Shown here one piece after another: positions 878-64,000 of a DNA stretch of 64,000 bases. The notes below the pieces were generated by a model, which had not been told where the DNA came from, ran no database searches, and saw only the letters and a program-made list of their open reading frames with translations. The DNA is from an uncultured Prevotella sp. Lineage in GTDB: Bacteria > Bacteroidota > Bacteroidia > Bacteroidales > Bacteroidaceae. The translations under genes were made by a program, and so were the position numbers. Position 1 is the stretch's first letter. Every line of letters starts with the position of its first letter. Location of the stretch: the NCBI GenBank assembly GCA_905233245.1, contig CAJODK010000002.1, positions 50 to 64,049 on the forward strand, written 5' to 3'.

Positions 878-2982
878 ACCTGCTTGACCAAGACATAAAG
901 TACCTGACGGGGGTTGGACCACAACGTCAAGAGATACTCAGCAAGGAGCTGAATATCAAGTCGTTTCGCGACCTACTGGAGTACTACCCGTACAAGCATG
1001 TGGACAGGACGAAAGTGTACTGCATCAGGGAGCTGACACGGGAGATGCCCTTCGTACAGGTAAGGGGAGAGATACTGTCCTTTGAGACCTTTCCGATGGG
1101 GCCCCGCAAGAAGCGCATCGTAGCACACCTGGGAGACGGCACGGGGGTGATGGATCTGGTGTGGTTCTCAGGTGCGCAGTATGTCATGAAGAACTACAAG
1201 GTGGGCAAGGAATACATCGTGTTCGGCCGTCCGACGGTCTTCAACGGGCGCTTTCAGGTGAGCCATCCGGAGATGGAAGACCCCCACCCGACCGCTCTCC
1301 CTTCAGGGGATATGGTGAGAGGCAGGATGCAGCCCTACTACAACACGACGGAGAAGATGAAGAAGATGGGGATGTCGAGCAAGATGATAGAGAAGTTCAC
1401 CAAGACCCTGATATCGAAACTCCCTGCCCTACCCGAGACGCTGCCCGAATTTATCACCAGACCTCTGCACCTCATGAGCCGCGACCAGGCGATGAGGGCT
1501 ATACACTACCCGCAGGATCAGTACGAACTGCAGCATGCAAGGGAACGACTGAAATTTGAGGAGCTCTTCTACGTGCAACTCAACATCCTGCGCTACACCG
1601 CCAATAACCGCAGGAAATACAAGGGCTACCTACTGCCAAAGGTAGGTGAGGCATTCTATGACTTCTACAATAAGAATCTACCCTTCGAACTCACAGGCGC
1701 CCAGAAGAGGGTGATGCACGAGATACACAGGGACATGAACACCGGAAGGCAGATGAACCGTCTGATACAGGGCGATGTGGGTTCGGGAAAGACTCTCGTG
1801 GCGCTGATGGCGATGCTGATAGCCGTGGACAATGGTTTTCAGGCATGCATGATGGCTCCTACGGAGATACTCGCGGAGCAGCATCTGGAGACGATAAAAG
1901 AATTTCTGAAGGGACTGCCTGTCAGAGTGGAACTCCTCACGGGAATCGTGAAGGGCAAGCGCAGGGAGAGCGTGATGGAGGGGCTGAAGAACGGCGAGGT
2001 GAAGATACTCGTGGGCACACACGCCATCATAGAGGACAATGTGCAATTCAGCAACCTGGGACTTGCCGTCATCGATGAGCAGCACCGATTCGGCGTAGCG
2101 CAGAGGGCAAAACTGTGGAACAAGAACGACAATCCTCCCCACGTGCTCGTAATGACAGCCACACCAATACCGCGCACGCTGGCAATGACGATATACGGCG
2201 ACCTGGACGTGAGTGTCATCGACGAACTGCCACCAGGCAGAAAACCCATCGTGACGATTCATAAGTATGAGAATCAGATGGTCAGCCTCTACGAGGGCAT
2301 TCGCAAAGAGGTGGCAAAGGGCAGGCAGATATACGTGGTATATCCCCTCATCACGGAAAGCGAGAAGATGGACCTGCAGGACCTGGAGGCAGGATTCGCC
2401 CACCTGCAGGAAGTATTCCCCAACTACCGCCTGAGCAAGGTGCACGGCAAGATGAAGGCGGCAGAGAAGGAAGAGGAGATGCAGCGATTCGCCCGTGGCG
2501 AGACGCAGATGCTCGTGGCTACGACAGTCATCGAGGTAGGCGTCAACGTGCCCAATGCCAGCGTGATGATTATCATGGAGGCACAGCGATTCGGCCTGTC
2601 ACAACTGCATCAGCTCAGAGGACGCGTGGGACGCGGCGCAGACCAGTCGTACTGCATACTCGTGAGCGACTACGAACTCTCCAAGGAGACGAAAAAGAGA
2701 CTCGACATCATGTGTGAGACCAACGACGGTTTCCAGATAGCCGAAGCAGACCTGAAACTCCGCGGGCCCGGCGACCTGGAAGGCACCCAGCAGAGCGGTA
2801 TGGCATTCGACCTGAAGATAGCCAACATCGCTACCGACGGCCAACTGGTACAGATGGCGCGTGACGAGGCGCAGAAGATAATAGACCGCGACCCCGACTG
2901 CAACCTGCCTGAGCACTCGCTATTGTGGAACAGACTCCGTGAGCTACGCGACATCGTAGTGAACTGGGGAGCGATATCATAA
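874..2982 (+). CDS. recG: ATP-dependent DNA helicase RecG
   Basis: [35 protein letters not shown]. Confidence 0.97.
1281..1323 (+). repeat. Degenerate C/G-rich palindromic element, in-frame in recG ([14 protein letters not shown])
   Basis: CCCCCACCCGACCGCTCTCCCTTCAGGGGA; weak hairpin resembling six other copies. Confidence 0.45.
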
Positions 2983-3051
2983 GAATACACAGAAGGAAGC
3001 GATGTGTGCAAGGTGAACGTTAAAAGTTGTAAAAGATATAAAAGTTAAGGA

Positions 3052-3099
3052 AACTTTCAACCTTCAACTTTCAACTTTCAACTTTTATTACTATCTTTG
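3052..3099 (+). promoter_or_regulatory. (ACTTTCA)4 tract plus -7 box TATCTTTG (3092-3099), hflX promoter
   Basis: Read directly from the sequence; ATG follows 8 nt after the box. Confidence 0.8.
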
Positions 3100-3107
3100 C
3101 AAGATAT

Positions 3108-4427
3108 ATGCGTGAGTTTGTAATATCAGAAGCGAAAGCAGAAACTGCCGTGCTCGTGGGACTCATCACCCCACAGCAGGACGAGGCAAAGACCAAGGAA
3201 TACCTGGACGAACTGGAATTCCTTGCAGATACTGCCGGCGCCGTGACTATCAAGCGATTCACCCAGAGAGTGAACGGTCCTTCGAGCGTGACCTACGTGG
3301 GCAAAGGCAAACTGGAGGAGATACGCGACTATATCGAGGCTCAGGAGAAGGCCTATGACGAATGGCAGGAAGAACTGCACTACCCTGAGGAGGGCGACGG
3401 GCCACAGCCTGTTGGTATGGTCATCTTTGACGATGAACTCTCTGCCAAGCAGATACGCAACATAGAACAGGAACTGAAGGTGAAGATACTCGACCGTACA
3501 AGCCTCATCCTCGACATCTTCGCCATGAGAGCGCAGACGGCAAATGCCAAGACACAGGTGGAACTGGCGCAATACCGCTATATGCTCCCTCGCCTGCAGA
3601 GACTGTGGACGCACCTGGAGCGTCAGGGCGGCGGTTCAGGTAGTGGCGGCGGCAAGGGTTCGGTAGGACTGCGCGGTCCGGGTGAGACACAGTTGGAGAT
3701 GGACCGCCGTATCATCCTCAATCGCATGTCACTCCTGAAAGAGCGCCTCGCAGAGATAGACAAGCAAAAGACCACACAGAGAAAGAACCGTGGACGACTG
3801 ATACGCGTGGCACTCGTGGGATATACCAACGTAGGCAAATCGACCATCATGAATATGCTGGCCAAGAGTGAGGTGTTTGCAGAGAACAAACTCTTCGCCA
3901 CGCTCGACACTACGGTCAGGAAGGTAGTGATAGAAAATCTCCCCTTCCTGTTGGCAGATACGGTAGGATTCATCAGAAAACTGCCCACAGACCTTGTCGA
4001 TTCCTTCAAATCCACACTGGACGAGACTCGCGAGGCCGACCTGCTGGTGCATGTGGTGGATATCAGCCATCCTGACTTCGAAGAACAAATCAAGGTGGTG
4101 GAGAAGACACTCGGCGACCTGGGATGTGCCGACAAACCATACATGATAGTCTTCAACAAGATAGACGCCTATACATGGAACGAGAAGGAAGAGGACGACC
4201 TGACACCAGTGAAGAAAAACGAGATATCGCTCGAAGAACTGAAGCAGACGTGGATGGCGAAACTTAACGGGAACGATAACGGGAACGGGAACGTGGACTG
4301 CCTCTTCATCTCGGCAAGGGAGAAGGAGAATATCGACGAATTTAAAGATACACTATACAAAAAAGTAAGGGAACTGCATGTGCAGAAGTACCCCTATAAC
4401 GATTTTCTATGGACTAAACCAGAATAA
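3108..4427 (+). CDS. hflX: GTPase HflX
   Basis: LRGPGETQLEMDRR, GYTNVGKS, LFATLDTT, DTVGFI, NKID. Confidence 0.96.
   Translation: MREFVISEAKAETAVLVGLITPQQDEAKTKEYLDELEFLADTAGAVTIKRFTQRVNGPSSVTYVGKGKLEEIRDYIEAQEKAYDEWQEELHYPEEGDGPQPVGMVIFDDELSAKQIRNIEQELKVKILDRTSLILDIFAMRAQTANAKTQVELAQYRYMLPRLQRLWTHLERQGGGSGSGGGKGSVGLRGPGETQLEMDRRIILNRMSLLKERLAEIDKQKTTQRKNRGRLIRVALVGYTNVGKSTIMNMLAKSEVFAENKLFATLDTTVRKVVIENLPFLLADTVGFIRKLPTDLVDSFKSTLDETREADLLVHVVDISHPDFEEQIKVVEKTLGDLGCADKPYMIVFNKIDAYTWNEKEEDDLTPVKKNEISLEELKQTWMAKLNGNDNGNGNVDCLFISAREKENIDEFKDTLYKKVRELHVQKYPYNDFLWTKPE
4266..4295 (+). repeat. (AACGGG)-type hexamer tract, in-frame in hflX (NGNDNGNGNV)
   Basis: AACGGG AACGAT AACGGG AACGGG AACGTG. 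Confidence 0.8.
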
Positions 4428-6036: not shown

Positions 6037-8934
6037 ATGAGACTTCTTAGAATACTCACCGCAGCTATCATTGTCAATTGTCAATTGTCAATCGTCAATT
6101 TGGAAGCTGCCACCAACGATCCTATCGACCTCCAGACCTACACCCTAGACAACGGCCTGAAGGTATTCCTCTCCGTCAACAAGGAGAAACCACGCATCAC
6201 TGCCCACATAGCCGTCAATACAGGTTCGCGCAACGACCCTGCAGAGACAACGGGGCTGGCACATTATCTGGAGCACCTGATGTTTAAGGGTTCCAAGCAG
6301 TTTGGCACATCCAACTATGCCGCCGAGGAACCCCTGCTCAATAAAATCAGCGATTTGTATGAGGAATATCGCAAACTGACCGACCCTGCTGAACGTAAGG
6401 CTAAGTACCACGAGATAGACTCTGTGTCACAATTGGCAGCGAAGTACAATATCCCTAACGAATACGACAAGATGATGTCGGCCATAGGAAGTACGGGGAC
6501 GAATGCCTACACCTCTTATGACGTGACCTGCTACGTGGAGAATATCCCCGCCAACGAACTGGAACGCTGGTGCATGGTGCAGGGCGACAGATTCCAGAAT
6601 CTCGTCATGCGTGGTTTCCACACCGAACTGGAGGCTGTGTATGAGGAGAAGAATATCACCATGACGAAGGACGGCCGTAAGTCCAACGAGGCTATGCTGA
6701 AGAAACTCTTCCCAACTCACCCCTACGGCATGCAGACCACCATCGGTACACAGGAGCATCTGAAGAACCCTTCTCAGGTGAACATACGCAACTACTACAA
6801 CCGCTACTACGTGCCAAATAACATAGCTATCTGCATGGCTGGCGACCTTGACCCAGAGCAGACTGTAGCTATGATAAAGAAATACTTCGGCACTTGGAAG
6901 CCAGGCAATAACATCACCCCGCCATCGTACCCTGAGCTGCCTCGCATCACTGCACCACAGGATACTACCGTGATGGGACAGGAGACTGAGCACGTCATGC
7001 TGGGCTGGCGCCTCAAGGGAGCCTCTTCCCTGCAGAATGACACCATCTCTATGGTAGATATGCTGCTCTCTAATGGCAAGGTAGGTCTTCTGGATGTGGA
7101 CCTCGACCAAAAGATGAAGGTTATGGGTGTAGGTTCTGGCATATGGGACCTGAAGGACTACAGCATGTTTATTCTGAAGGGTACTCCCAATGAAGGACAG
7201 ACACTCGAGGAAGTGAAGCAGCTGATGCTCGACGAACTCAACAAACTCAAAAACGGCGAATGGGATGAGAGCCTCGTCCGCAGCATCGTCACCAACGAGC
7301 GTCTGGCTCAGCTGACAGCCTTCGACAGCAATGAATCACGCGTCAGCCAGATGGTGGACTGCTATATCACGGGCACTCCTTGGCAACAACACATAGAGCA
7401 ACTGGACCGCATCGACAAACTCACCAAGAGCGAGATTACGGCATGGGCAAAGGAGCATCTCAGCGATGGATACGTCTGTGTGTACAAGCGCAAGGGCGAG
7501 GATACCACTATCGTAAAGATTGAAAAACCTGCCATCACTGCCATACCAAGCAATCGCGATATGCAGAGTGACTTCCTCAAGAATTTCCTCAAAGTGGAGG
7601 TGGAGCCTATCCATCCGCAGTTTGTGGACTATGAGAAGGATATGACGATAGTGCCTATCTCAGGCTCTCAGAATAAGGAACTGCTCTACAAGCAGAACGA
7701 GAAGGACGACCGCTTCTCTCTGCAGTTCCGCTATGAGTTTGGCTCTAATGCCGACCGTCGCTACTCCGTAGCTAACAGCTATTTCGAACTCATCGGCACC
7801 AAGAAACAAACCCTCGACCAGATAAAGCGTAAATTCTATGACATCGCCTGCAACTACTCGTTTGCGGTAGGTGCCAAGAATATCACATTCTCACTCTCTG
7901 GTCTGCAGGAGAATATGCCTAAGGCACTCAAGATGCTCAATGAGGTCATCACGGGACTCCAGGCTGACACTGCCGTATATAATAAGTACATACAGCAAGT
8001 GCAGAAAAGCCGCAGGGAAGTACGCACAAATCAGAAAGCCTGCTACAGCGCTCTCGTGTCCTACGCAATGTATGGCGAGGACACCCCGCTGAAAGATGTG
8101 GCATCCATCAGTGAACTCAAGGCTACCAACCCTGAGGTATATACAAAACTAATCCAAGAGGTTTGGAGTATGCCTGCTACAGTGCTCTACTGGGGACCTG
8201 CTTCTGCAAAGGAAGTGCTCAAGGTCGTTAAAGACTATAAGAAACTTAAGAATCTTAAGGAGCCTGTCAACAAAGTGCGCACCCGACAACTCACCACTCA
8301 GGACGAGGTCATCATCGCTCCTTATGATGCCAAGAACCTCAACATGCGCATGATACACAATGAGAATCTGCCTCTCAATATCGATAATATGCCTCTCGTG
8401 GCACTCTTCAACGAGTATTTCGGAGGTTCGATGAATGCCATCGTATTCCAGGAACTGCGTGAGGCTCGCGGTCTGGCATACAATGCCTCGGCTACCTATG
8501 CAGTACCAAGCCGCAAGGATGAGACAGAGTACTATCAGGAGCATATCATCTCGCAGAATGACAAGTTGGCTGAATGCATCACAGTCTTCAAGCAAATCAC
8601 CGACACGCTGCCAGAATCTCCTAACCTCTTCAATACGGCACAGCAGAGCCTTATCAAGACTATCGCTGCCGCCCGCACTACCAAGATGGGTGTTCTTGCC
8701 AGTTACCTCGGCGCTAAGTATCTTGGTATAGACTATGACATCAATCGCCTGCTGTGGGAGAAGATTCCTACCCTCACGCTGCAGGATCTCGTGCGCTTCG
8801 AACAACAGTATATCAAGGGCAAGCCTCTGCGCTATGCCATACTTGGCAAGGAGGACGAAATCCTTCAGTCGGGTGCTCTCAGCGGGTTCCAGAATATCCG
8901 CCGCTTAACCCTCAATGACATCTTCCCAGAATGA
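6037..8934 (+). CDS. Secreted M16 (insulinase-family) zinc peptidase
   Basis: HYLEH (HxxEH), TNAYT, ELREARGLAY, N-terminal signal peptide. Confidence 0.92.
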   Translation: MRLLRILTAAIIVNCQLSIVNLEAATNDPIDLQTYTLDNGLKVFLSVNKEKPRITAHIAVNTGSRNDPAETTGLAHYLEHLMFKGSKQFGTSNYAAEEPLLNKISDLYEEYRKLTDPAERKAKYHEIDSVSQLAAKYNIPNEYDKMMSAIGSTGTNAYTSYDVTCYVENIPANELERWCMVQGDRFQNLVMRGFHTELEAVYEEKNITMTKDGRKSNEAMLKKLFPTHPYGMQTTIGTQEHLKNPSQVNIRNYYNRYYVPNNIAICMAGDLDPEQTVAMIKKYFGTWKPGNNITPPSYPELPRITAPQDTTVMGQETEHVMLGWRLKGASSLQNDTISMVDMLLSNGKVGLLDVDLDQKMKVMGVGSGIWDLKDYSMFILKGTPNEGQTLEEVKQLMLDELNKLKNGEWDESLVRSIVTNERLAQLTAFDSNESRVSQMVDCYITGTPWQQHIEQLDRIDKLTKSEITAWAKEHLSDGYVCVYKRKGEDTTIVKIEKPAITAIPSNRDMQSDFLKNFLKVEVEPIHPQFVDYEKDMTIVPISGSQNKELLYKQNEKDDRFSLQFRYEFGSNADRRYSVANSYFELIGTKKQTLDQIKRKFYDIACNYSFAVGAKNITFSLSGLQENMPKALKMLNEVITGLQADTAVYNKYIQQVQKSRREVRTNQKACYSALVSYAMYGEDTPLKDVASISELKATNPEVYTKLIQEVWSMPATVLYWGPASAKEVLKVVKDYKKLKNLKEPVNKVRTRQLTTQDEVIIAPYDAKNLNMRMIHNENLPLNIDNMPLVALFNEYFGGSMNAIVFQELREARGLAYNASATYAVPSRKDETEYYQEHIISQNDKLAECITVFKQITDTLPESPNLFNTAQQSLIKTIAAARTTKMGVLASYLGAKYLGIDYDINRLLWEKIPTLTLQDLVRFEQQYIKGKPLRYAILGKEDEILQSGALSGFQNIRRLTLNDIFPE
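6070..6100 (+). repeat. (TTGTCAA)4 heptamer in the signal-peptide coding region (IVNCQLSIVNL)
   Basis: Read directly from the sequence. Confidence 0.9.
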
Positions 8935-16975: not shown

Positions 16976-17699
16976 CCTCGTAACTCTCTTTCATAAGGTA
17001 TTCGATATTTTCCCGACCCTTACCTATCGGATAGATAGGCTCATGTATTGTGAGGGTCAGCGGGTGCCACGTGATAAACTTTCCGTCCCTATGGCGTGGC
17101 AATACCTCATAGGAACCTTTGATGGTCAGTGGTACAACGGGCAACTGCAGTTCGTCGGCCAGAGTGAAGGCACCCCTTTTGAAGGGTTGCATCTTGCCAT
17201 CTCTGGTCCTCGCGCCCTCTGGGAATACCATCAGCGACGCACCACCTTCCAGAGCCTTCTCTGCCTGTTGGTAGGTGTGCTTCACTGCAGCCCTTGAACT
17301 CTTATCCACGTAGATATATCCTGCCCTCTTGCAACCGATGCCGAGGAAGGGAACTTTCTCCAATTCTTTCTTCAGCATCCACCTTATCTCAGCGCCCAGA
17401 TATCCACACACCAAGAATATATCGTACGCCCCTTGGTGGTTGGCAACGTAGATACAACCTCCCCCCAACCCCCTCCCAAAGAGGGGGAGTTTTCCTTCGA
17501 CCTTTACTGGCAACAGCGAGGCTCGCATGATTATCTTCGCCCACCAGCGGGAGGCAAAGGAGCCCCACCAATCAGGATTGGGCATATAGCGGCACATCAC
17601 TGCCATAGTGGTGCCAGCCCATGCCGACGCCAATACCACGACGGGTGCCAGCACGATGCACTGATATATCTTATATGCGAAATTTAATAGGCTGGCCAT
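16956..17699 (-). CDS. plsC: Lysophospholipid/1-acyl-sn-glycerol-3-phosphate acyltransferase
   Basis: NHQGAYD (HX4D), FPEGART, FKRGAF. Confidence 0.88.
   Translation of the reverse strand: MASLLNFAYKIYQCIVLAPVVVLASAWAGTTMAVMCRYMPNPDWWGSFASRWWAKIIMRASLLPVKVEGKLPLFGRGLGGGCIYVANHQGAYDIFLVCGYLGAEIRWMLKKELEKVPFLGIGCKRAGYIYVDKSSRAAVKHTYQQAEKALEGGASLMVFPEGARTRDGKMQPFKRGAFTLADELQLPVVPLTIKGSYEVLPRHRDGKFITWHPLTLTIHEPIYPIGKGRENIEYLMKESYEVISRSV
17458..17489 (-). repeat. C/G-rich palindromic element, in-frame in plsC (LPLFGRGLGG)
   Basis: CCCCTC-CCAAA-GAGGGG hairpin plus G-rich tail on the - strand. Confidence 0.8.
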
Positions 17700-19753: not shown

Positions 19754-19787
19754 GAGAGAATTATTGAGATAGAAAAAGAAATTTTTA

Positions 19788-19835
19788 AACTTTAACCTTT
19801 CAACTTTCAACTTTCAACTTTTTTTAGTACCTTTG
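19788..19835 (+). promoter_or_regulatory. (ACTTTCA)4 tract plus -7 box TACCTTTG (19828-19835), purU promoter
   Basis: Read directly from the sequence. Confidence 0.8.
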
Positions 19836-19851
19836 CAAAAATTTACGGATA

Positions 19852-20755: not shown

Positions 20756-20813
20756 AATTAACTAGCTAATTCTCGAAATTAGCTAGTTAATTTTTTAAAT
20801 TTGCTAGTTAATT
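20756..20813. repeat. Perfect 16-bp inverted repeat plus a third direct copy at 21-nt period
   Basis: AATTAACTAGCTAATT-CTCGA-AATTAGCTAGTTAATT, then AATTTGCTAGTTAATT. Confidence 0.85.
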
Positions 20814-20956
20814 TGAAACAGGAGCTAAGAGTTTATAGTTCGAAGCCAAGCGCTATGAGTTCTATACTCAGCTTTTAGGAACGAATAGGCTGTTAAAGTT
20901 GCTTAAAAGATAGGTAAAAATGGTGAAAGGGGGATTTTTCTATGAAAAATATTAGT

Positions 20957-26854: not shown

Positions 26855-26880
26855 AAGTTGAATGTTGAATGTTGAAAGTT
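26852..26880 (+). repeat. Heptamer tract TAAAAGT TGAATGT TGAATGT TGAAAGT, starting at the OMF stop codon
   Basis: Read directly from the sequence. Confidence 0.8.
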
Positions 26881-26889
26881 TAAAGCTTT

Positions 26890-27764: not shown

Positions 27765-27810
27765 CTTTCAACTTTCAACTTTCAACTTTCAACTTTTCTT
27801 TGTACCTTTG
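27765..27810 (+). promoter_or_regulatory. (CTTTCAA)4 tract plus -7 box TACCTTTG (27803-27810), rplS promoter
   Basis: Read directly from the sequence. Confidence 0.8.
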
Positions 27811-27897
27811 CATCCGCTTTTTAGCAGAAACCGTAACCGCTGGCCTCGACCAAGTTGCGTATAACAACAACATTCACACTAAAAGATCTACAAGAAA

Positions 27898-33295: not shown

Positions 33296-33360
33296 TTTGA
33301 GAAAAGATAGTTTTTTTGAAATATTTCCTTATTTATATATGTTATTTTCATTTTTTTTTG

Positions 33361-52933: not shown

Positions 52934-52970
52934 TCCCCCGCTTCTTATTAAAAAAACTTAAAGGCACCAC

Positions 52971-53018
52971 AACTTTCAACCTTCAACTTTCAACTCTCAA
53001 CTAAAATCAGTACCTTTG
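52971..53018 (+). promoter_or_regulatory. (ACTTTCA)4 tract plus -7 box TACCTTTG (53011-53018), rarA promoter
   Basis: Read directly from the sequence; ATG follows 8 nt after the box. Confidence 0.8.
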
Positions 53019-53026
53019 CAGGTTGT

Positions 53027-54298
53027 ATGGCGCCATTGGCAGAACGTTTGCGTCCTAAGACGCTCGATGAATACATAGGACAGAAGCACCTCGTAGGGGA
53101 AGGAGCGGTGTTGCGACGAATGATTGATTCGGGGCACATCAATTCGTTTATCCTATGGGGGCCTCCGGGAGTGGGCAAGACCACGCTGGCGCAAATTATC
53201 GCCAACAAACTCGACACCCCTTTCTATACTCTCTCCGCCGTCACCAGTGGTGTCAAGGACGTTCGTGATGTCATCGACAAAGCCAAGAACAATCGTTTCT
53301 TCTCACAGACTTCCCCCATTCTCTTCATCGACGAGATACACCGTTTCTCCAAGTCTCAGCAGGACTCCCTGCTCGGTGCCGTAGAGCGAGGTATCGTGAC
53401 CCTCATCGGTGCTACGACGGAGAATCCCTCCTTTGAGGTCATCCGTCCTCTGCTCTCCCGTTGCCAACTCTACATCCTTAAGTCCTTGGAGAAGGACGAC
53501 CTCATGGAACTCCTCAATCGCGCCGTCACTACCGACGAGGAACTCCGCAAACTCGACATACGCCTCACCGAGACCGAGGCCCTGATGCGCTACAGCGGTG
53601 GTGACGCCCGTAAGTTGCTCAATATCCTGCAACTCGTCGTCGAGTCAGAGTCAAGTAATACGATAGAGATTACCAACGACCTTGTGGTAAGTCGCCTGCA
53701 ACAGAATCCTATGGCGTACGACAAGCAGGGTGAAATGCACTACGACATCATCTCAGCCTTCATCAAGTCCATACGAGGCAGCGACCCCGATGCTGCACTC
53801 TATTGGATGGCACGCATGATAGAGGGTGGCGAAGACCCTGAGTTCATTGCCCGCCGCATGGTCATCAGTGCCTCCGAGGATATCGGCCTTGCCAACCCCA
53901 ATGCTCTCCTGCTCGCCAATGCCGCCTTTGACACGGTGATGAAGATAGGATGGCCAGAGGCACGCATCGCCCTTGCTGAGGCCTGCGTATATCTCGCCAC
54001 CTCACCCAAGTCCAACTCCGCCTATTGTGGCATAAACGACGCCCTTGCCCTGGTCAAGGAGACTGGCAATCTACCCGTGCCCTTGCATCTGCGCAATGCT
54101 CCTACTAAGCTCATGGCGGAACTAGGTTACAGCGACGGTTACAAGTACCCTCACGACTACCCCGACCACTTCACCCCACAACAGTATATGCCTGACCAAC
54201 TCCGTGACCACCGCATCTGGCATGCCCAGCATCAGCCTATCGAGGAACGTCAGTATCAGCAGATGATTCGTACATGGGGAGAGAGATTTAAGGATTAA
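53027..54298 (+). CDS. rarA: Replication-associated recombination protein A (MgsA/RarA)
   Basis: PLAERLRP, GPPGVGKT, DEIHRF, GATTENP, SAFIKSIRGSD, VPLHLRNAPT. Confidence 0.96.
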   Translation: MAPLAERLRPKTLDEYIGQKHLVGEGAVLRRMIDSGHINSFILWGPPGVGKTTLAQIIANKLDTPFYTLSAVTSGVKDVRDVIDKAKNNRFFSQTSPILFIDEIHRFSKSQQDSLLGAVERGIVTLIGATTENPSFEVIRPLLSRCQLYILKSLEKDDLMELLNRAVTTDEELRKLDIRLTETEALMRYSGGDARKLLNILQLVVESESSNTIEITNDLVVSRLQQNPMAYDKQGEMHYDIISAFIKSIRGSDPDAALYWMARMIEGGEDPEFIARRMVISASEDIGLANPNALLLANAAFDTVMKIGWPEARIALAEACVYLATSPKSNSAYCGINDALALVKETGNLPVPLHLRNAPTKLMAELGYSDGYKYPHDYPDHFTPQQYMPDQLRDHRIWHAQHQPIEERQYQQMIRTWGERFKD

Positions 54299-54314
54299 AG
54301 ATTATAGACTAAAG

Positions 54315-57086
54315 ATTAAGAAACTACTCTCCATAGCGCTACTCTTTCTTGCCATAACAATCGTTGGGGCAGGTGGTAATTCCTCCCCTCTCTCACAGAG
54401 AGGGGCTGGGGGTGAGTCCGATACCGACACTATCGCCCTCGACTCCCTTCATCAGGCCATCCTCGCCTACAATAAGGCTGTCGATGACTCCATCAAGGCC
54501 GACTCCCTCAATCGCACTAAGAAGAGCACCATCGAGGCGCCAGTGGATTACGTTGCCAAGGACTCCTTCGTCTATTACGCTGACACCAAGCGCGCCTTCC
54601 TCTATGGCACTTCCAATGTGAAGTACGAGAATATGGACCTCAAGGCGGAGAAAATCAATATGTCTCTCGACAGCAATATCGTACGTGCCACGGGTGCTAT
54701 GGATACCGTCAAGAAGCAGCGCTACGGCCTGCCTGTCTTCATGATGGGCAGCGACAAGTACGAGACCGACACTATGGCATTCAATTTCAAGTCCAAGCGT
54801 GGTCTCATACAGAATGCCTACACCCATCAGGAGGATGGTTTTCTGCTCTCAGAGCGCTCTAAGCGCGACAGTTCGGGCACCTTCTATCTCAAGCGCGGCC
54901 GCTACACCACCTGTGACGACCCTCACCCTGACTTCTACATCGCTCTCACCCGCGCCAAGGTGCGTCCTGGCAAGGATGTCATCTTCGGTCCTGCATATCT
55001 CGTAGTACAGGATGTACCTTTGCCACTTGCCATACCGTACGGTTTCTTCCCCTTCACGAAGAGTTACTCCAGCGGTTTCATCATGCCAACCTATGGTGAT
55101 GAGATGGACAGAGGCTTCTACCTGCGTGACGGTGGCTACTATTTCGCCATCAGTGACAAGATTGACCTCAAGCTCCTCGGCGAAATCTTCACCAAGGGTT
55201 CATGGGGCATCAGTGCCGCCTCCAACTACCGTGTGCGCTACAAGTACTCCGGACAGTTCTATGCCTCCTATCAGGACTCGCGCACTGGTGATGAGGGCAT
55301 CGACCAAACCAGAAACACCAGTTTCAAGATACAGTGGAGCCACACTCAAGACTCGAAGGCCAACCCCTACACCAGCCTGCGTGCCAGTGTCAATTTCGCC
55401 TCCATCAGTTACGAGCGCAACAACCTCACCTCCATGTACAATCCCACCACGCTGACGCAGTCCACTCGTACCTCGTCAATATCGTGGAGCACAGGATTCA
55501 GCAGTCTGGGCATGACCCTCAGCGGTGGTACCAATATCACACAGCAGATGCGTGACTCCACCATCGACCTCACTCTCCCTGACCTCAATATCTACATCTC
55601 GCAGTTCTATCCCTTCAAGCGCAAGAATGCAGTAGGCAAACAGCGTTGGTACGAGAAAATCAACATGTCCTACACAGGACGCATCACCAACACTATCCAC
55701 GCCAAGGAAGACCGTATCTTCAAGGCCAATCTCGCTCGCGAATGGCGCAACGGCTGGATGCACACCATACCTGTCAAGGCCACCTTCAATCTGGCCAAAT
55801 ACATCAATGTTACGCCGTCCTTCAATTTCACTGACCGCATGTACACCCAGCGCATCAAGCGTTCGTGGGATCAGGACACACAGAAGGAGGTACTCGACAC
55901 CGTACAGGGATTCTACAATGTCTATAACTGGAACATGGCGATTGACCTCAATACGAAAATATACGGATTCTTCGTCCCCAACCGTCGCATCTTTGGCGAC
56001 AAGGTGCAGGCCATACGTCATGTCTTCACCCCCAAGGTGGGTTTCACCTACGCCCCCGACTTCTCCACCTCCCGCTACGGCTACTACGACACCTATCAGA
56101 AGGTAGATGCCGATGGTGTGCCCTTCGGCGACCCTGTCAAGTATTCCTACTACGCCAACAATGTCTTTTCAGGACCTGGCTCAGGCAAGACAGGCCGTGT
56201 CACCTTCTCCATCGACAATAATATCGAGGCCAAGATACGCTCCGACAAGGACTCTACCGGCATACGCAAGATAAGTATCATCGACCAACTCGCCGCCACC
56301 ATGTCCTACAATATGGCTGCCAAGGAGAAACCCTGGAGTGACCTCAATGTCAATCTGCGCCTCAAGTGGTGGAAAAGCTACACCTTCAGTATGAATGCCG
56401 TCTTCGCCACCTATGCCTACGAACTCGATAAGAACGGCAATCCCTACGTGGGCAACCGCACCGAGTACAGCAAGGGACGCTTCGGCCGCTTCCAGGGTAT
56501 GTCGCAGAATATCCACTACACCATCACTCCTGAGAAGATACGCCGACTCTTCGGACGCAACAAGGACAAAGACAAGAAGGATGAAGGAAAGAAGGATGAG
56601 ACCGTCGATACTGGCGTAGAGACCAATATAGACCCCACCATGACGGCCGCTGCCAATGCCGCAGAGAAGAAGAATGCAGGCCTCGCTGAGACCGACGATG
56701 ACGGCTACCTCAAGTTCTCCATGCCTTGGAGCCTCACCATCAGTTATGGTATCACCATGCGTGAGAACACCGCAGGCACCTTCGACAAGGAGCGTATGCG
56801 CTATCCATACAAGTACACCCAGAATCTCAATTTCTATGGCAATATACGCCTTGCTGACGGTTGGAATATCTCCTTCAACAGCGGCTACGACTTCGACCAG
56901 CACAAACTCAGTATGACCACTGCCTCCCTGGCTCGTGACCTTCACTGTTTCTCCATGTCCTGCTACGTAGTTCTCGCCCCTTACACCTCCTACAATTTCT
57001 CCTTCCGCTGCAACGCCTCCACCCTCACCGATGCCCTCAAGTACGACAAGCGTTCCAGCTACAGCAACAGTGTGAAATGGTACTAA
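54315..57086 (+). CDS. lptD: Putative LPS-assembly outer-membrane protein LptD; N-terminus extended to a probable ATT start at 54315
   Basis: YTTCD..HP, PFTK..SSG.IMPTYG, RDLHC, C-terminal WY; the frame is open upstream of 54543 and encodes a signal peptide. Confidence 0.8.
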   Translation: MKKLLSIALLFLAITIVGAGGNSSPLSQRGAGGESDTDTIALDSLHQAILAYNKAVDDSIKADSLNRTKKSTIEAPVDYVAKDSFVYYADTKRAFLYGTSNVKYENMDLKAEKINMSLDSNIVRATGAMDTVKKQRYGLPVFMMGSDKYETDTMAFNFKSKRGLIQNAYTHQEDGFLLSERSKRDSSGTFYLKRGRYTTCDDPHPDFYIALTRAKVRPGKDVIFGPAYLVVQDVPLPLAIPYGFFPFTKSYSSGFIMPTYGDEMDRGFYLRDGGYYFAISDKIDLKLLGEIFTKGSWGISAASNYRVRYKYSGQFYASYQDSRTGDEGIDQTRNTSFKIQWSHTQDSKANPYTSLRASVNFASISYERNNLTSMYNPTTLTQSTRTSSISWSTGFSSLGMTLSGGTNITQQMRDSTIDLTLPDLNIYISQFYPFKRKNAVGKQRWYEKINMSYTGRITNTIHAKEDRIFKANLAREWRNGWMHTIPVKATFNLAKYINVTPSFNFTDRMYTQRIKRSWDQDTQKEVLDTVQGFYNVYNWNMAIDLNTKIYGFFVPNRRIFGDKVQAIRHVFTPKVGFTYAPDFSTSRYGYYDTYQKVDADGVPFGDPVKYSYYANNVFSGPGSGKTGRVTFSIDNNIEAKIRSDKDSTGIRKISIIDQLAATMSYNMAAKEKPWSDLNVNLRLKWWKSYTFSMNAVFATYAYELDKNGNPYVGNRTEYSKGRFGRFQGMSQNIHYTITPEKIRRLFGRNKDKDKKDEGKKDETVDTGVETNIDPTMTAAANAAEKKNAGLAETDDDGYLKFSMPWSLTISYGITMRENTAGTFDKERMRYPYKYTQNLNFYGNIRLADGWNISFNSGYDFDQHKLSMTTASLARDLHCFSMSCYVVLAPYTSYNFSFRCNASTLTDALKYDKRSSYSNSVKWY
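54381..54419 (+). repeat. C/G-rich palindromic element, in-frame just after the LptD signal peptide
   Basis: CCCCTCTCT-CAC-AGAGAGGGG followed by CTGGGGGTGAG. Confidence 0.85.
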
Positions 57087-58387
57087 GCGAGTTTATAGCC
57101 CTGCACAAGGACGACGACATCCGTACCCTCGCACTGCAGAAGATGCCTGAGGGCATAGATGCCAAGTGGGTACTCCAGCAGATAGAGGGCTACCAGATAG
57201 CCAAGAAGAAACTCCCAACATGGGTTCAAGGGTTCAAGAGTTCCAAAGTTCAAGGGGTTCTGTTCCCTCCCCGCCTCTCTCTCGAACAATGCTCCAGTGA
57301 GTCCACTGCCCGCTACAAAGCGCAGTTGGTTCTGCACTCCCCTTTTACTCCCCCTTCTACTCCCACTTTTACTCCCTCTTTTATAGATTTAACCGCTGGC
57401 TTCGGTGTTGACTTCTCCTATATGGCGCAAGGTTTTCAGCACGCCATCTACGTGGAGCCAAACGAAGAACTCTGCCACATCGCCCGTCACAATCTTCCCA
57501 TTCTCGGACTCCCCCATGCCCAGGTCATCAACACCACCTGTGAGCAATTTCTCTCCTCTGGACTCTCACCTCTAACCTCTCCGCTCGGCTCTGCCGCTTT
57601 GCACAGCAAAGACCTCTCACCTCTAACCATCTACCTCGACCCCTCCCGTCGTTCCTCCTCCGGTCATAAGGTTATGACCATCGAAGACTGCACCCCCAAT
57701 CTCCTCGACCTGCAGGACCGTCTCCTTGAGATAGCCGACACCGTCATCGTCAAACTCTCCCCCATGCTCGACATCACCGATGCCCTGCGCAAACTAAAGG
57801 GCGTCACTGAGGTGCATGTTGTGAGTGTAAAGAATGAGTGCAAGGAACTCCTGTTTGTGATGAAAGGAGAGGGAGGCGTCACCATCCACTGTGTGAATCT
57901 CGAGACGGATGAGCCAGACTTCATTGCCCCCCTTCAGCCCCAAGGGGCTACAAATGTAGCAATTGCAGAAGACGTATCAGCTGGTGGGCTTCTCTTTGTC
58001 CCTAACAGTTCCATCCTCAAGGCAGGTCTTCAGGATGTCTTCGCCCAGCGCTACGGACTACAGAAACTTGCACCCAATTCCCACTTGTATGTTCAAGAGT
58101 GCAAGGGGGCAAGGGTTCAAGAGGTTCCCGTTCCCGTTAACGTTCCCGTTGAACTCCCAGCCCGCCAGTTCCGCCTCCTCGGCATCAGCGATTTCAGCAA
58201 GGCAAGCCTCAAGACATTCCTCAGGGACATTCCGCAAGCCAATCTCGCAGTGCGCAATTTCCCCTCCGATGTGGCGACCTTACGCCGCCGCCTGAAAATC
58301 AAGGAAGGTGGCAGCGATTATCTCTTCGCCACCACCCTCGCCGACGGTACCCACGTCCTTCTCCGTTGTCAGAAGGTCACTTCATGA
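57077..58387 (+). CDS. Class I SAM-dependent methyltransferase with THUMP-like domain
   Basis: SLEQCSS, DLTAGFGVD, YLDPSRR, KLSPMLD, C-terminal VRNFP..LKIKEGG. Confidence 0.85.
   Translation: MVLSEFIALHKDDDIRTLALQKMPEGIDAKWVLQQIEGYQIAKKKLPTWVQGFKSSKVQGVLFPPRLSLEQCSSESTARYKAQLVLHSPFTPPSTPTFTPSFIDLTAGFGVDFSYMAQGFQHAIYVEPNEELCHIARHNLPILGLPHAQVINTTCEQFLSSGLSPLTSPLGSAALHSKDLSPLTIYLDPSRRSSSGHKVMTIEDCTPNLLDLQDRLLEIADTVIVKLSPMLDITDALRKLKGVTEVHVVSVKNECKELLFVMKGEGGVTIHCVNLETDEPDFIAPLQPQGATNVAIAEDVSAGGLLFVPNSSILKAGLQDVFAQRYGLQKLAPNSHLYVQECKGARVQEVPVPVNVPVELPARQFRLLGISDFSKASLKTFLRDIPQANLAVRNFPSDVATLRRRLKIKEGGSDYLFATTLADGTHVLLRCQKVTS
57563..57628 (+). repeat. Twin-hairpin cassette, copy 3, in-frame in the methyltransferase
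   Basis: 60/61 identical to 15740-15800 and encodes the same peptide. Confidence 0.95.
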
Positions 58388-59757: not shown

Positions 59758-60524
59758 AGCCTTGAGATGAATTCTTTCAGTGCCTCACCAGGGGCGGTGG
59801 TCTTCATGAAATTCTCGCCTATGAGGAAACCCCTGAAACCAGCCTCTCGCAGTGCCTTCACCGTGTCGGGGTTCGAGATGCCGCTCTCGCTCACCTTCAC
59901 AGCGTCCTTTGGGAGCAGTTCGGCGAGACGGAAACTATTCTCCACATCCGTCACGAAGGAACCTAGATTGCGGTTGTTGATACCACAGAGATCGGGCTCC
60001 AGTTCGGCATACTCCAGTTCCCTCTCGTCGTGCATCTCCAGCAGCACCTCCATACCGAGTTCGTGCGCCTTGTCCATGAGCACCTTGCAGCGCTCCTTAG
60101 TCAGACAGGCGGCAATGAGCAGTACCGCAGAAGCACCGCAGAGCGCCGCAGCATACAGTTGTGCCTCGTCGATGACGAAGTTCTTGTACAGCACAGGCAG
60201 TGTGACACCCGACCTTTTCGCCATGCGGATGAAGTCGTCACATCCCCCGAAGTACTGTTCGTCGGTGAGGATGCTGAGCGCCGCAGCACCATTCTGCTGA
60301 TATGCCAGCGGTATGATGTCGGCACGTCCGTCCTCCTTTATCCATCCCTTCGATGGCGAGCGACGCTTAAATTCCGCTATGATGCCCGTCTCGCTCTGTA
60401 GGAGTGCCTCGCGCAGGGAAAGCCTCACCCCTACCCCCTCCCCCGCAGGGAGGGGAACTGTTGAACGGAGTTCTTCTACTTCTTTACGCTTGTAATCTAC
60501 GATTTCCTGTAGTATATCTTTCAT
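59754..60524 (-). CDS. trpC: Indole-3-glycerol phosphate synthase (ATG at 60524)
   Basis: IAEFKRRSPSKG, SILTD, GINNRNL, VSESGI. Confidence 0.95.
   Translation of the reverse strand: MKDILQEIVDYKRKEVEELRSTVPLPAGEGVGVRLSLREALLQSETGIIAEFKRRSPSKGWIKEDGRADIIPLAYQQNGAAALSILTDEQYFGGCDDFIRMAKRSGVTLPVLYKNFVIDEAQLYAAALCGASAVLLIAACLTKERCKVLMDKAHELGMEVLLEMHDERELEYAELEPDLCGINNRNLGSFVTDVENSFRLAELLPKDAVKVSESGISNPDTVKALREAGFRGFLIGENFMKTTAPGEALKEFISRL
60422..60456 (-). repeat. C/G-rich palindromic element, in-frame in trpC (PLPAGEGVGVR)
   Basis: CCCCTCCC-N5-GGGAGGGG plus GTAGGGGTGAGGC tail on the - strand. Confidence 0.85.
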
Positions 60525-61540: not shown

Positions 61541-61569
61541 TTCAATTATCAATTATCTATTTTCAATTT

Positions 61570-62133
61570 TCATAGAAAAAGCCAGTTCTGTATCATTCTC
61601 TTACCATCGGGCGTCAGCACGCTCTCTGGGTGAAACTGTATGCCCCTCACGTTGAGGTCCCTGTGGCGCATCGCCATTATCTGTCCCTCGTCGCTCTCGG
61701 CTATCACCTCCAGGCAGTCGGGCAGTCCCTCGCGTGACACCACCCACGAGTGGTAGCGCCCTACGGTGATGTCCTTTTCCACACGGCTGAATATGGGGTC
61801 TTCCTTTACTATGTGGCAAGGGCTCTCCACGCCGTGGAATACCTCAGAGAGGTTCTCCAGTCGTGCACCAAACACCTCACCTATGGCCTGATGTCCCAGA
61901 CAGACGCCCAGTATGGGTTTTCTGCCTGCATAGGTGCGTATGACGTCCATCAGCAGTCCCGCCTCAGAGGGGATGCCGGGACCTGGCGAGAGGAGTATCT
62001 TGCTGTAGGGCTTCAGGTCGGCGAGCTCAAACTGGTCGTTGCGCACCACATCGACCTCTGCACCCAGTTCCTTCACCAGATGACTCAGATTGTATGTAAA
62101 CGAGTCGTAATTGTCTATAATAACTATCTTCAT
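61570..62133 (-). CDS. trpG: Anthranilate synthase component II
   Basis: IDNYDSF, SPGPG, GVCLGHQ, RYHS, QFHPES. Confidence 0.96.
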   Translation of the reverse strand: MKIVIIDNYDSFTYNLSHLVKELGAEVDVVRNDQFELADLKPYSKILLSPGPGIPSEAGLLMDVIRTYAGRKPILGVCLGHQAIGEVFGARLENLSEVFHGVESPCHIVKEDPIFSRVEKDITVGRYHSWVVSREGLPDCLEVIAESDEGQIMAMRHRDLNVRGIQFHPESVLTPDGKRMIQNWLFL

Positions 62134-63512
62134 AACTTTTCCGCTTTTTCGATGGCCTTACGCAGGGCACCCAGTTTATTATTCACTTCCTGTAATTCGT
62201 ATTCCACGTCGCTCTTGGCTACTATGCCGCCGCCAGCCTGAAACCACAGTTCGCCGTTTCTTGATACAAAGGTGCGGATGGTGATGGCCTGGTTCAGCGC
62301 TCCGTCGAGTCCTATGATGCCGATGCATCCTCCGTAGGCACCGCGATTGTGAGGTTCGTACTCCGAGATGAGTTGCATGGCGCGCACCTTTGGCGCTCCT
62401 GACAGCGTACCGGCAGGGAATGTGTCGATAAACGCCTTGACGGGATCAGCACCCTTGTCCAGTTCGCCCGACACCCTCGATACCAGGTGTATCACGTGCG
62501 AGTAGTACTGCAGGTCCTTGTAGAAGTCCACCTTCACCCCGTGGCAGTTGCGGCTCAGGTCATTGCGCGCCAGGTCCACCAGCATCACGTGCTCGGCATT
62601 CTCCTTAGGGTCGTTTCTGAGATACTCCGCACCCCTGCGGTCAGCCTCAGCATCCCCCGTACGCTTCGTCGTGCCTGCTATAGGATCAATATATGCCTTC
62701 CCGCCCTCTATGCGGCAATGCGTCTCGGGTGAAGAACCAAAGATACGGAAACCTCCGAAGTCGAAATAGAAGAGGTATGGCGAAGGATTGATGCTGCGCA
62801 GCGCACGGTAGAGTTTGAAGTCATCACCCTCATACTTCTGTACGAAGCGTCGCGAGAGCACTATCTGGAATACGTCGCCACGCAGGCAGTGCTGTATGCC
62901 TCTGCGTATATTCTCCCTGTGCTCATCGTCAGTCAGCGTACTCCTCACGTCCCCCACCGGGTGGAAGTCGTAAGCCTGCACGTTGCCCTTGTTCATCGCC
63001 TTCAGCACATCATCCACGTCACCGTCCAGACTCACTATTTTCAGCAAACTATTATGATGGTCAAAGACTATCACCACCTTATATAGTATATAGAGCATGT
63101 CAGGAGCATCATTCTTCTCCTGCGTCTCGTCCTTCACCTGGATACCCTCGAAGTACCTCACGGCATTGAAGGAAGTGTAGCCGAAGAGACCGCAGACGCC
63201 CTTCTCCTCGCCCTCCACCTCTATGCTGTCGATGAGCGCGTGGATAGCCTTGTCACAACCATACTCCCCACTGACCTCGTGCTCTGTCACCCTGCCGTCA
63301 GGGAACGTCACGGTAGCCTTACCGTGGCCTATAGCCACACTGGCGATGGGATTCACTCCGATAAACGAACGCGAATTGTCCGCCTCATGATAGTCCGAAC
63401 ACTCCATCAGCGCACTCTGCGGATAGAGGTCCCTCAGTTTCATATAGACACCCACCGGCGTGTATGTATCCGCCAGTATTGTCTTCACCTGTGTTTTATA
63501 CTTATACATCAT
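62130..63512 (-). CDS. trpE: Anthranilate synthase component I
   Basis: NPSPY, GSSPE, PIAGT, EHVMLVDLARND, FPAGTLSGAPK. Confidence 0.96.
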   Translation of the reverse strand: MMYKYKTQVKTILADTYTPVGVYMKLRDLYPQSALMECSDYHEADNSRSFIGVNPIASVAIGHGKATVTFPDGRVTEHEVSGEYGCDKAIHALIDSIEVEGEEKGVCGLFGYTSFNAVRYFEGIQVKDETQEKNDAPDMLYILYKVVIVFDHHNSLLKIVSLDGDVDDVLKAMNKGNVQAYDFHPVGDVRSTLTDDEHRENIRRGIQHCLRGDVFQIVLSRRFVQKYEGDDFKLYRALRSINPSPYLFYFDFGGFRIFGSSPETHCRIEGGKAYIDPIAGTTKRTGDAEADRRGAEYLRNDPKENAEHVMLVDLARNDLSRNCHGVKVDFYKDLQYYSHVIHLVSRVSGELDKGADPVKAFIDTFPAGTLSGAPKVRAMQLISEYEPHNRGAYGGCIGIIGLDGALNQAITIRTFVSRNGELWFQAGGGIVAKSDVEYELQEVNNKLGALRKAIEKAEKL

Positions 63513-63535
63513 AATTCTCTTTTTAACCTTTGACC

Positions 63536-64000
63536 TTAGACCTTAGACCTTAAATACGTCTCAATATCCTTATCCCCACGTCCGCTGACCGTCAGCACCA
63601 CCACGTCGTCGGGCTTGAATGACAGTTTCTCCAGTGCAGCGATGGCGTGGGCACTCTCTATGGCAGGTATGATACCCTCCATGCGCGTCAGTTCGTATCC
63701 GCCCCTGATAGCCTCGTCGTCGTTGATGCTCAGCACCTCCGTGCGACCCTGCTTCGCCATGTTGCAGTGCATAGGTCCCACACCGGGGTAGTCCAGACCC
63801 GCAGAGATGGTGAACGCCTCCTGTATCTGTCCGTCCTCATCCTGCATCACCAGCATCTTCGCTCCGTGCAGTATGCCCGTCGTGCCACGATGTATCGTCG
63901 CCGCCGTGCGGTCGGTCATATAGCCCTGTCCGCCAGCCTCTGCCAGCACTATCTTTACCCTCTCGTCGTCCATATAGTGGTATATCGTGCCCGCAGCATT
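63536..64000 (-). CDS. trpB: Tryptophan synthase beta chain, 3' part (5' end outside the window)
   Basis: ISAGLDYPGVGP, EGIIPAIESAHA, SGRGDKD. Confidence 0.95.
   Translation of the reverse strand, partial: NAAGTIYHYMDDERVKIVLAEAGGQGYMTDRTAATIHRGTTGILHGAKMLVMQDEDGQIQEAFTISAGLDYPGVGPMHCNMAKQGRTEVLSINDDEAIRGGYELTRMEGIIPAIESAHAIAALEKLSFKPDDVVVLTVSGRGDKDIETYLRSKV

Follow-up and report, generated by a model that had tools for sequence, protein, structure and literature searches.

Dispersed heptamer repeats were recognized as early as 1990. Here we examine short repeat tracts of this kind in a window of 64,000 nucleotides (the whole stretch of DNA analyzed) from contig 2 of G000, a metagenome-assembled genome (MAG) of a rumen Prevotella (1.93 Mb, 49 contigs, 82% complete). 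The tracts lie between genes and, in frame, within housekeeping genes, and they belong to a known kind of repeat, that of heptanucleotide long simple sequence repeats (LSSR), short tandemly repeated repetitive sequences (STRR), and in-frame elements like those of Rickettsia. They are DNA-level elements of a small shared repertoire, not products of the codons of their host genes. With about even confidence, we interpret them as copies of a genome-wide population of tiny DNA-level repeat elements that spread non-locally and resemble the arms around genes of the PF05635 family.

Heptanucleotide long simple repeats were surveyed by Mrazek, Guo and Shah (2007), who proposed polymerase slippage (PMC4679880). 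TAACTGA direct repeats, whose cause is unexplained, occur in Beggiatoaceae, Cyanobacteria, and five Bacteroidetes (MacGregor 2015, PMC4679880). The repeats of G000 resemble both in having tandem units of 7 nt, two to six per set, at hundreds of dispersed sites, in being mostly intergenic and often located just upstream of genes, and in their patchy spread (PMC4679880). As with LSSR and STRR, arrays of 5–11-nt units exceed compositional expectation in G000, and units are reused, mostly between genes. Unlike LSSR and TAACTGA repeats, however, those of G000 comprise many coexisting families with a length sharply peaked near 32 nt, include a sizeable in-frame minority that replaces housekeeping sequence, and appear to match PF05635 arms. 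Our literature search for heptamer repeats in Prevotella returned no specific description.

Cyanobacteria provide a second comparison, and the analogy with cyanobacterial STRR heptamers drawn in an earlier note on this DNA proved apt. These heptamers were reportedly described by Mazel in 1990, and small dispersed repeats (SDR) of 21–27 nt in Nostoc are said to have been described by Elhai et al. in 2008. By these accounts, Nostoc heptamer arrays host a hairpin mini-element below 35 nt that sits in open reading frames (ORFs) without breaking them and is present or absent between close relatives, and G000 is similar in each respect. The 31-nt core described below is likewise shorter than 100 nt, has a conserved hairpin, occurs in many copies, and has no coding capacity of its own. 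The phylum (Bacteroidota for G000) and the sequences differ, and STRR in the strict sense are those of heterocyst-forming cyanobacteria, whereas the host here is a rumen Prevotella. Rickettsia palindromic elements (RPE; Ogata et al. 2000, 2002) are, according to PMC10969869, selfish elements that lie in frame in unrelated metabolic genes in a fold-compatible manner. The G000 tracts share this in-frame residence in unrelated housekeeping ORFs, but RPE are about 150 bp long with a conserved peptide, whereas G000 elements measure 20–60 nt, can be read in any frame, and consist mainly of tandem arrays. Their size also places them outside miniature inverted-repeat transposable elements (100–400 bp, with terminal inverted repeats and target-site duplication).

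The nearest relatives of G000 by RecG are rumen Prevotella MAGs at 83–84% identity. Gene-by-gene comparison of orthologs used five relatives (G021, G022, G023, G024, and G003), and enzyme searches covered five repeat-rich genomes (G000, G021, G022, G023, and G024). The identities of recG, hflX, the M16 peptidase gene, malQ, plsC, and pyrC were confirmed, as were those of RelA/SpoT, LptD, TrpC, and a THUMP-like methyltransferase. The genes called addA and addB had family matches only below curated cut-offs (RecB-like helicase and AddB-like nuclease, respectively), and conspecific addB copies carry the name PD-(D/E)XK nuclease family protein. Unit families are labeled A (ACTTTCA), B (ACCTCTC), C (ATTGTCA), D (AACGGG-type hexamers, AAC plus three variable bases), E (CAGTTCA), F (GTTCAAG with one or two extra bases), and G (AAACGACC-type octamers).

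Tandem repeats in G000 exceed chance expectation. Tandem Repeats Finder (TRF) returned 56 rows in the window and 1805 genome-wide, against 224, 310, and 366 in Markov genomes of order 1, 3, and 5, and period-7 rows numbered 470 genome-wide against 30–40 in Markov genomes. Within coding sequence (CDS) alone there were 737 arrays, compared with 299–390 when codons were shuffled within genes or 20-codon blocks, and at a score of at least 50 there were 101 compared with 9–18. Enrichment in CDS was six- to sevenfold for period 7 (124 arrays versus 16–21 in the codon-shuffled control), about threefold for period 6 (115 versus 30–48), and just 1.5-fold for period 9 (172 versus 91–123), so period-9 arrays in CDS are largely attributable to chance. 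Both the census with unit clustering and the shuffled control had been outlined in the earlier note, and together they confirm a genome-wide excess made up of few recurrent families. Heptamer density was about 20-fold higher outside ORFs than inside. Arrays of different type adjoined each other in ORFs 11 times against about one expected, a count inflated by overlapping TRF calls, so that non-random pairing of unlike arrays is suggestive. In an 11-mer copy-number mask, a threshold of 10 was too permissive, and the families were marked only by segments with at least 25 copies. A general excess of hairpins in the window was rejected (33 stems of at least 7 bp versus 13–31 in shuffles); among hairpins, only the C5/G5 type described below stood out.

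The excess is composed of units that recur in unrelated places. After overlap collapse, 1501 arrays remained genome-wide, with 71, 29, 20, and 18 for families A, B, C, and D. Two-unit seeds of five families occurred 5–64 times in the genome and not at all in a Markov control, which upholds the claim, previously made from the sequence alone, that the same units recur in unrelated genes and gaps. Units of window tracts were also found at non-orthologous places in G021–G023. Across the genus the distribution was patchy: family B occurred in 15 of 81 genomes, eight of which had 17–58 hits, and genomes other than family-B carriers were rich in different units. Since the same families appear in unrelated genes, in intergenic DNA, and at non-orthologous sites of sister species, and are patchy across the genus, we conclude that the repertoire is a property of the DNA rather than of host codons. 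The commonest unit is 7 nt, and units of 6, 8, 9, and 12 nt are also present. Heptamer array length does not decay from short to long but has a mode at 31–34 nt (4.6–4.9 units) in coding and intergenic copies alike, and arrays of one family seem, by eye, to share their start and end phase.

Reading frame and orientation of the arrays are sorted by protein tolerance. In loops the hexamer superfamily encodes Asn-x repeats, in signal peptides it yields Leu-Thr repeats, and read in reverse it gives Val-Pro. Antisense family-B arrays contain precisely the unit variants free of in-frame stops. Among coding family-C arrays, 13 of 19 form the core of a signal peptide at amino acids (aa) 8–25, followed by an Ala-x-Ala/Gln site, and the array in the M16 peptidase is among them. 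The persisting copies are frame-preserving and stop-free, with frame sorted by context, in line with the idea put forward in the earlier note that only frame-preserving products survive.

Hairpin elements and promoters extend the repertoire. A 31-nt twin-hairpin core has seven copies in G000, all in ORFs, in three frames plus one in reverse, and is found nested within heptamer arrays. It occurs in nine of 81 genus genomes with conserved stems and variable loops, and short direct repeats flank some copies only. The C5/G5 hairpin family (TCCCCC, 2–7 nt, GGGGGA) has 17 members genome-wide, of which 16 fall within ORFs, and the controls contain no member; sites of this type in the window are at 17469, 18896, 48614, and 48728. 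Family A contributes a promoter module of four full units plus a partial one, a fixed 8-nt spacer, and a TAcCTTTG box, which we take to be the Bacteroidota -7 promoter element. The genome contains about 50 such modules, of which many precede tRNA genes and five to six lie in the window. It is conserved in sister species, with dozens of copies in G021–G023.

By alignment to orthologs of the five relatives, about 25 window tracts are lineage-specific and in frame, which bears out the proposal that short repeats of many unit types lie within named genes of the window. They are located at 4266, 6070, 14698, 15740 (to 15800), 17455 (to 17487), 17704, 18102, 18896, 25474, 48614, 48728, 49566 (to 49612), 50809, 51410, 51937, 52443, 52676, 57222, 57339, 57563 (to 57628), 58091, 58124, and 60423 (to 60455), and recG also carries a lineage-specific insert near 1281. 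The tracts affect about a dozen genes of the window, and every tract-bearing ORF is open, as the earlier note had stated. Its list of genes held for recG, hflX, the M16 peptidase, malQ, plsC, pyrC, the genes called addA and addB, the methyltransferase, and trpC, whereas the tracts in relA and lptD are weak low-complexity repeats. The features of the window are as follows.

1281–1325, plus strand: C-rich insert in recG, aa 136–150, absent from 24 Prevotella RecG orthologs.
3052–3102, plus strand: intergenic family-A heptamer array with -7 promoter box, upstream of hflX (TRF).
4266–4293, plus strand: family-D hexamer tract in hflX, eight residues gained (net +24 nt versus G021–G023).
6070–6100, plus strand: family-C heptamer array forming the signal-peptide core of the M16 peptidase (net 0 nt versus orthologs).
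14698–14730, plus strand: family-E heptamer array in malQ (net -3 nt versus four orthologs); its left edge has a native seed.
15740–15800, plus strand: family-B heptamer flanks around the 31-nt twin-hairpin core in malQ.
17455–17487, minus strand: C/G-rich palindromic tract in plsC (alignment and hairpin scan).
17704–17735, minus strand: family-B heptamer array at the C-terminus of pyrC (net +12 to +15 nt versus non-repeat orthologs).
18102–18132, minus strand: family-A-like heptamer array at aa 295–305 of pyrC (net +6 to +9 nt), immediately preceding the catalytic DHAPH motif.
18896–18914, minus strand: C5/G5 hairpin element at aa 34–40 of pyrC, in a region five residues shorter than in orthologs.
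19784–19842, plus strand: intergenic family-A array with -7 box (promoter module).
25474–25500, plus strand: heptamer array in the signal peptide of an outer-membrane efflux protein (net 0 versus G022 and G003).
26854–26885, minus strand: intergenic family-A-like array.
27765–27796, plus strand: intergenic family-A array with -7 box (module 27765–27815).
33267–33295, minus strand: intergenic family-A array in a minus-strand promoter module (33248–33298).
48614–48632 and 48728–48743, plus strand: two C5/G5 hairpin elements in addA.
49566–49612, plus strand: hexamer tract adjoining a heptamer array in addA (net +3 to +6 nt).
50809–50828, plus strand: family-B heptamer tract in addB, with a hexamer tract at the same site in G023.
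51410–51435, plus strand: family-F 9-mer tract in addB.
51937–51963, plus strand: family-D hexamer tract in addB, in another reading frame.
52443–52467, plus strand: 12-mer tract in addB (net -3).
52676–52707, plus strand: family-G octamer tract in addB; family G also forms the arms of a PF05635 gene in G000.
52970–53022, plus strand: intergenic family-A array with -7 box.
57222–57256, plus strand: family-F octamer tract in the methyltransferase.
57339–57383, plus strand: 12-mer tract in the methyltransferase (+18 nt versus G023), equal in length to heptamer arrays of G021 and G022.
57563–57628, plus strand: twin-hairpin cassette with family-B flanks in the methyltransferase.
58091–58150, plus strand: family-F octamer tract adjoining a reverse-oriented family-D hexamer tract in the methyltransferase (net +24 and +15 nt).
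60423–60455, minus strand: C/G-rich hairpin tract in trpC, missing from a 94%-identical strain.

Several TRF rows were set aside. Eleven weak rows of period 9–21 (2370, 2381, 7235, 10812, 13843, 19966, 20275, 24668, 48225, 58207, and 60124) are conserved native sequence without an indel, for example recG 2370–2422, and the low enrichment at period 9 in CDS (1.5-fold) agrees with their native status in the alignments. A tract at 41820 is upstream of the true start codon and was rejected as an in-ORF tract. Some further observations concern individual genes. RelA/SpoT (43869–45725) begins later than its orthologs, and a Glu/Lys-rich repeat near aa 434 varies by one 9-nt unit among conspecific copies. 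In the region 54288–54545, the lptD frame has no canonical start where orthologs run about 15 residues further upstream, and this gap holds the rarA stop and a heptamer tract. In one conspecific contig, a frameshift near aa 125 divides the outer-membrane efflux gene (25463–26854) into P0094 and P0096, at a point outside any repeat tract. An intergenic 21-nt repeat at 20756–20814 (2.8 copies, 16-bp perfect stem) is unlike the other families. MalQ (14570–16975) has 801 residues compared with 890–918 in four relatives, about 100 fewer, and a 34-residue native segment is missing at the site of its hairpin cassette.

Comparison with orthologs indicates that heptamer tracts take the place of native sequence. 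At eight in-ORF heptamer tracts, with arrays of 20–33 nt, the net change in length was -6 to +18 nt and never 21 or 42. Since in-frame expansion of a 7-nt unit needs 21 or 42 nt, these tracts are replacements, as the earlier note had suggested for several tracts; expansion is instead compatible with the hflX hexamer tract and with the octamer tract at 58091.

Unrelated families also occupy the same site in different lineages. At pyrC aa 295, the A-like array of G000 corresponds to family B in a 79%-identical relative and to families E and G, with 31 residues added, in two others. The C-terminus of pyrC carries family B in G000, a family-D hexamer array in G021, and another repeat in G022. At aa 88–103 of the methyltransferase, the 12-mer array of G000 is matched by C and A-like heptamer arrays of equal length in G021 and G022, and G023 has no repeat there; exchange of families between lineages was also seen at methyltransferase aa 163 and in addB. 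The closest relatives have different recG inserts, both at aa 136–150 and at another site, and the family-E unit of malQ recurs elsewhere in G021 and G023. Inserts in 119 PyrC homologs cluster at four permissive positions.

The in-ORF tracts occupy permissive sites such as loops, signal peptides, and termini, and in structure models they coincide with low-confidence coil. In the methyltransferase model (mean predicted local distance difference test [pLDDT] score 84.9), low-confidence coil is confined to aa 49–60, 88–103, 163–181, and 339–358, which are the tracts, with pLDDT of 63 at aa 51–60 and below 50 at aa 90–95, 169–172, and 344–353. The PyrC model (mean pLDDT 91.7) dips at two tracts, aa 31–40 (block average 73) and aa 421–440 (below 50 at aa 428–433), and also at aa 61–70, where there is no tract. 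At the third PyrC tract, aa 295–300 are coil with a mild dip, but aa 301–305 form a native strand. The suggestion that tracts replace protein loops therefore describes several that lie in low-confidence coil, including those of the methyltransferase, while several others are in signal peptides or termini and part of one is modeled as a strand.

Variation within the species shows that the process is active now. Conspecific copies were taken from protein clusters at 90% identity, whose members are 98–100% identical. Copies with one unit more or fewer were found for the methyltransferase 12-mer (57339), and a copy one unit shorter was found for each of the hflX hexamer (4266) and the methyltransferase hexamer at 58091–58150. 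Other differences involved whole patches. Two plsC alleles (variant P0060) differ solely in having a C/G-palindrome tract or a family-B tract at one site, and in a methyltransferase allele an 8-residue native segment is replaced by a 13-residue family-D peptide. The 51-nt hairpin cassette of malQ is present or absent among 98–100% identical alleles (P0042/43/45 variants) and is bounded by a direct repeat; deletion between the flanking repeats is an equally possible direction. Some changes break the gene: in pyrC allele P0152, loss of exactly one heptamer unit from the aa 295–305 array causes a frameshift, and a one-unit loss at 57563–57628 splits the methyltransferase of a conspecific contig into P0008 and P0009. 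Nine of about eleven internal indels within the species fell at repeat tracts, and the signal-peptide array of the M16 peptidase was unchanged across eight conspecific copies. Because closely related strains differ by whole-patch replacement, we conclude that the process operates within the species. A frame-shifted reading is not supported as the source of the replaced alleles: when the window's own methyltransferase and plsC segments are translated in their two remaining forward frames, the variant peptides do not appear. A metagenome scan with the methyltransferase as query gave a best match no closer than 55% identity.

A candidate source for the arrays is the cassette family built around PF05635 genes. 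PF05635, the 23S rRNA intervening-sequence protein, resembles Avd, the accessory protein of diversity-generating retroelements (DGR; PMC10053308). All five repeat-rich genomes have PF05635 genes, in 2 (G000), 10, 1, 1, and 8 copies. The two loci of G000 are at C26:3007–3507 (L252) and C34:2100–2800 (L247), one of which has octamer arrays in direct rather than inverted orientation; the window itself has no such cassette. Across G000, G021, G022, G024, G030, G048, and G084, about 21 of 22 PF05635 genes are bracketed on either side by tandem-repeat arrays, with inverted orientation in about 20 of the arm pairs. Arms measured by TRF are mostly of 4–6 units, with a few longer, and several are 29–37 nt long. 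They belong to families B (G048 and G084, 29–33 nt), C, D, F (G021), and G (G000) and to an A-like family (G024). The families of the window tracts and their size of about 32 nt appear to match these arms, and the PF05635 protein may take part in array copying. Ten intergenic pairs of inverted same-family arrays, 29–220 nt apart with no ORF between them, were also observed in G000 (including C1:196625–196774 and C16:8909–9049), and these may be gene-less remnants of stem-bracketed cassettes. The cassettes of this clade resemble the 23S rRNA intervening sequence in having a small four-helix-bundle gene inside a long stem. They differ in being flanked, in the stretches read, by protein-coding or intergenic sequence; in addition, unlike the intervening sequences or DGR, their stems are tandem short repeats with hundreds of solo arm look-alikes, and no reverse transcriptase was found in the five genomes searched.

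The main element is an array of about 30–35 nt with four to five tandem units. Most arrays are intergenic, with one family serving as the upstream half of about 50 promoters, and the minority in ORFs takes the place of native sequence of similar length at permissive sites. Resident arrays gain or lose single units and hairpin cassettes and are exchanged for other families, between species and between strains. Under the reading that we favor, arrival would occur by non-local copying: a short patch could be copied from an ectopic array or cassette arm, used as a template or as the partner in recombination, with a few homologous bases or an array already present providing the seed. Selection would then remove copies that shift the frame, add a stop codon, or hit a structured part of the protein. 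A more specific proposal, which we consider unlikely, is that the arrays of about 32 nt are solo arms of a mobile PF05635 cassette family whose protein would bind the units and promote patch copying without a reverse transcriptase. Avd is a pentamer, and by analogy an Avd-like pentamer could correspond to the figure of about five units.

The evidence does not all point towards non-local copying, and several observations weigh against it. Conspecific alleles were read as proteins, so that breakpoints and donors were not seen in DNA. The hexamer tract of hflX (4266) and the octamer tract of the methyltransferase (58091) each gained 24 nt, a whole-unit multiple that fits plain local expansion, as does the variation in copy number between strains of the hflX hexamer, a methyltransferase hexamer, and the 12-mer. 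A native stretch resembling one unit stands at the start of about a third of tracts, although enrichment of such seeds is weak (minimum p <0.06 in 6 of 16 tracts), and the last two units of the pyrC aa 295–305 array encode native strand residues before Asp-His-Ala-Pro-His; local birth is thus possible for some tracts. With respect to the cassettes, PF05635 copy number correlated with array density across 31 genus genomes (Spearman rho 0.73; 0.58 for heptamers alone; 0.56 in the 28 genomes with regions not picked from pattern hits), but this correlation ignores kinship and rests on 29–63 kb per genome. No dose relation appeared among the five closest genomes, the array load of G000 is high despite only two PF05635 genes, and the 82%-complete G000 yielded no cassette for its three largest families, A, B, and C, whose cassettes came to light in relatives alone.

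A rival reading is that of purely local microsatellite dynamics, in which preferential slippage of the replicative polymerase on registers of about 7 nt expands proto-repeats in native sequence, deletions close by bring back the frame, and units recur through mutational and codon bias. In many bacteria, long simple repeats most often have heptanucleotide units, with polymerase slippage as the proposed cause (PMC4679880). Unit gain and loss was directly seen in conspecific copies, native seeds occur at pyrC, malQ, and hexamer sites, and the gains at 4266 and 58091 are whole-unit multiples. Slippage certainly acts on the arrays and may create some of them. As a complete account, however, we consider it rather unlikely, as it leaves unexplained the 71 arrays of one unit, the length peak at 4.6–4.9 units with apparently shared end phase, the occupation of one site by unrelated families in different sister lineages and strains, the recurrence of an identical 31-nt core in seven genes, and the match to PF05635 cassette arms. 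The gain of 21 nt expected of in-frame heptamer expansion was never seen, and mismatch repair is intact: MutS (MutS1) and MutL are intact in all five repeat-rich genomes, which also led us to reject a mismatch-repair-deficient mutator.

A selected function, in which tracts act as contingency switches or supply the protein with useful parts, for instance linkers or the cores of signal peptides, is distinctly improbable. It would account for the signal-peptide position of 13 of the 19 coding family-C arrays before an Ala-x-Ala/Gln site, for the existence of one-unit frameshift alleles, and for the intergenic family-A arrays as phased promoter parts. In Neisseria opa, CTCTT repeats in the leader-peptide coding region constitute a contingency locus, and G000 is similar in having units that are not multiples of three in signal-peptide coding sequence, where a one-unit change shifts the frame. 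Unlike opa, the signal-peptide arrays examined in G000 showed no on/off variation, including in the eight conspecific M16 copies, and the frameshift alleles are in housekeeping genes (pyrC and the methyltransferase). Moreover, tract-bearing genes mostly encode cytoplasmic enzymes, the tracts are modeled as disordered coil, and the same DNA is read in any frame.

It is more doubtful still, to the point of being very improbable, that a dedicated reverse transcriptase or an enzyme of the HUH type, like the REP-associated tyrosine transposases (RAYT) of repetitive extragenic palindromic (REP) elements, writes or transposes the repeats. The idea draws on analogy with REP/RAYT systems and retroelement-templated insertion and on the resemblance of PF05635 to Avd (PMC10053308). 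Neither RVT_1 (PF00078) nor the Y1 transposase domain (PF01797, Y1_Tnp) had a match in G000, G021, G022, G023, or G024, whereas control genomes matched, although the completeness of these MAGs is either unstated or about 80% and mobile elements are often unbinned. The earlier suggestion of templated writing or break repair is favored by whole-segment replacement between strains but gains nothing from these enzyme searches, and of the gene families proposed for correlation with repeat load, the four-helix-bundle PF05635 was positive, and reverse transcriptases and HUH/RAYT genes were not found in the five genomes. An artifact of assembly or binning, conceivable for a 49-contig MAG, is refuted for practical purposes by identical tract-bearing proteins on several independent contigs (NCBI and ENA, some also in Logan), by open ORFs, and by homologous tracts in sister species.

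These tracts show that such repeats can, on a large scale, take over stretches of essential enzymes and of signal peptides, and that they render host genes frameshift-prone. What the window contributes beyond earlier knowledge is the arithmetic of replacement, the occurrence of replaced and frameshifted alleles in a single species, a signal-peptide family, and an independent test of the PF05635 link. For annotation and modeling of rumen Prevotella, the tracts explain many odd low-confidence loops and split genes. For the origin of dispersed heptamer repeats, PF05635 cassettes offer a concrete, testable candidate source, with copying of non-local arrays as the reading that we favor. If the solo-arm proposal is true, PF05635 cassettes would be a previously unrecognized patch-writing system, which could also explain cyanobacterial STRR and the heptamer repeats of other phyla.

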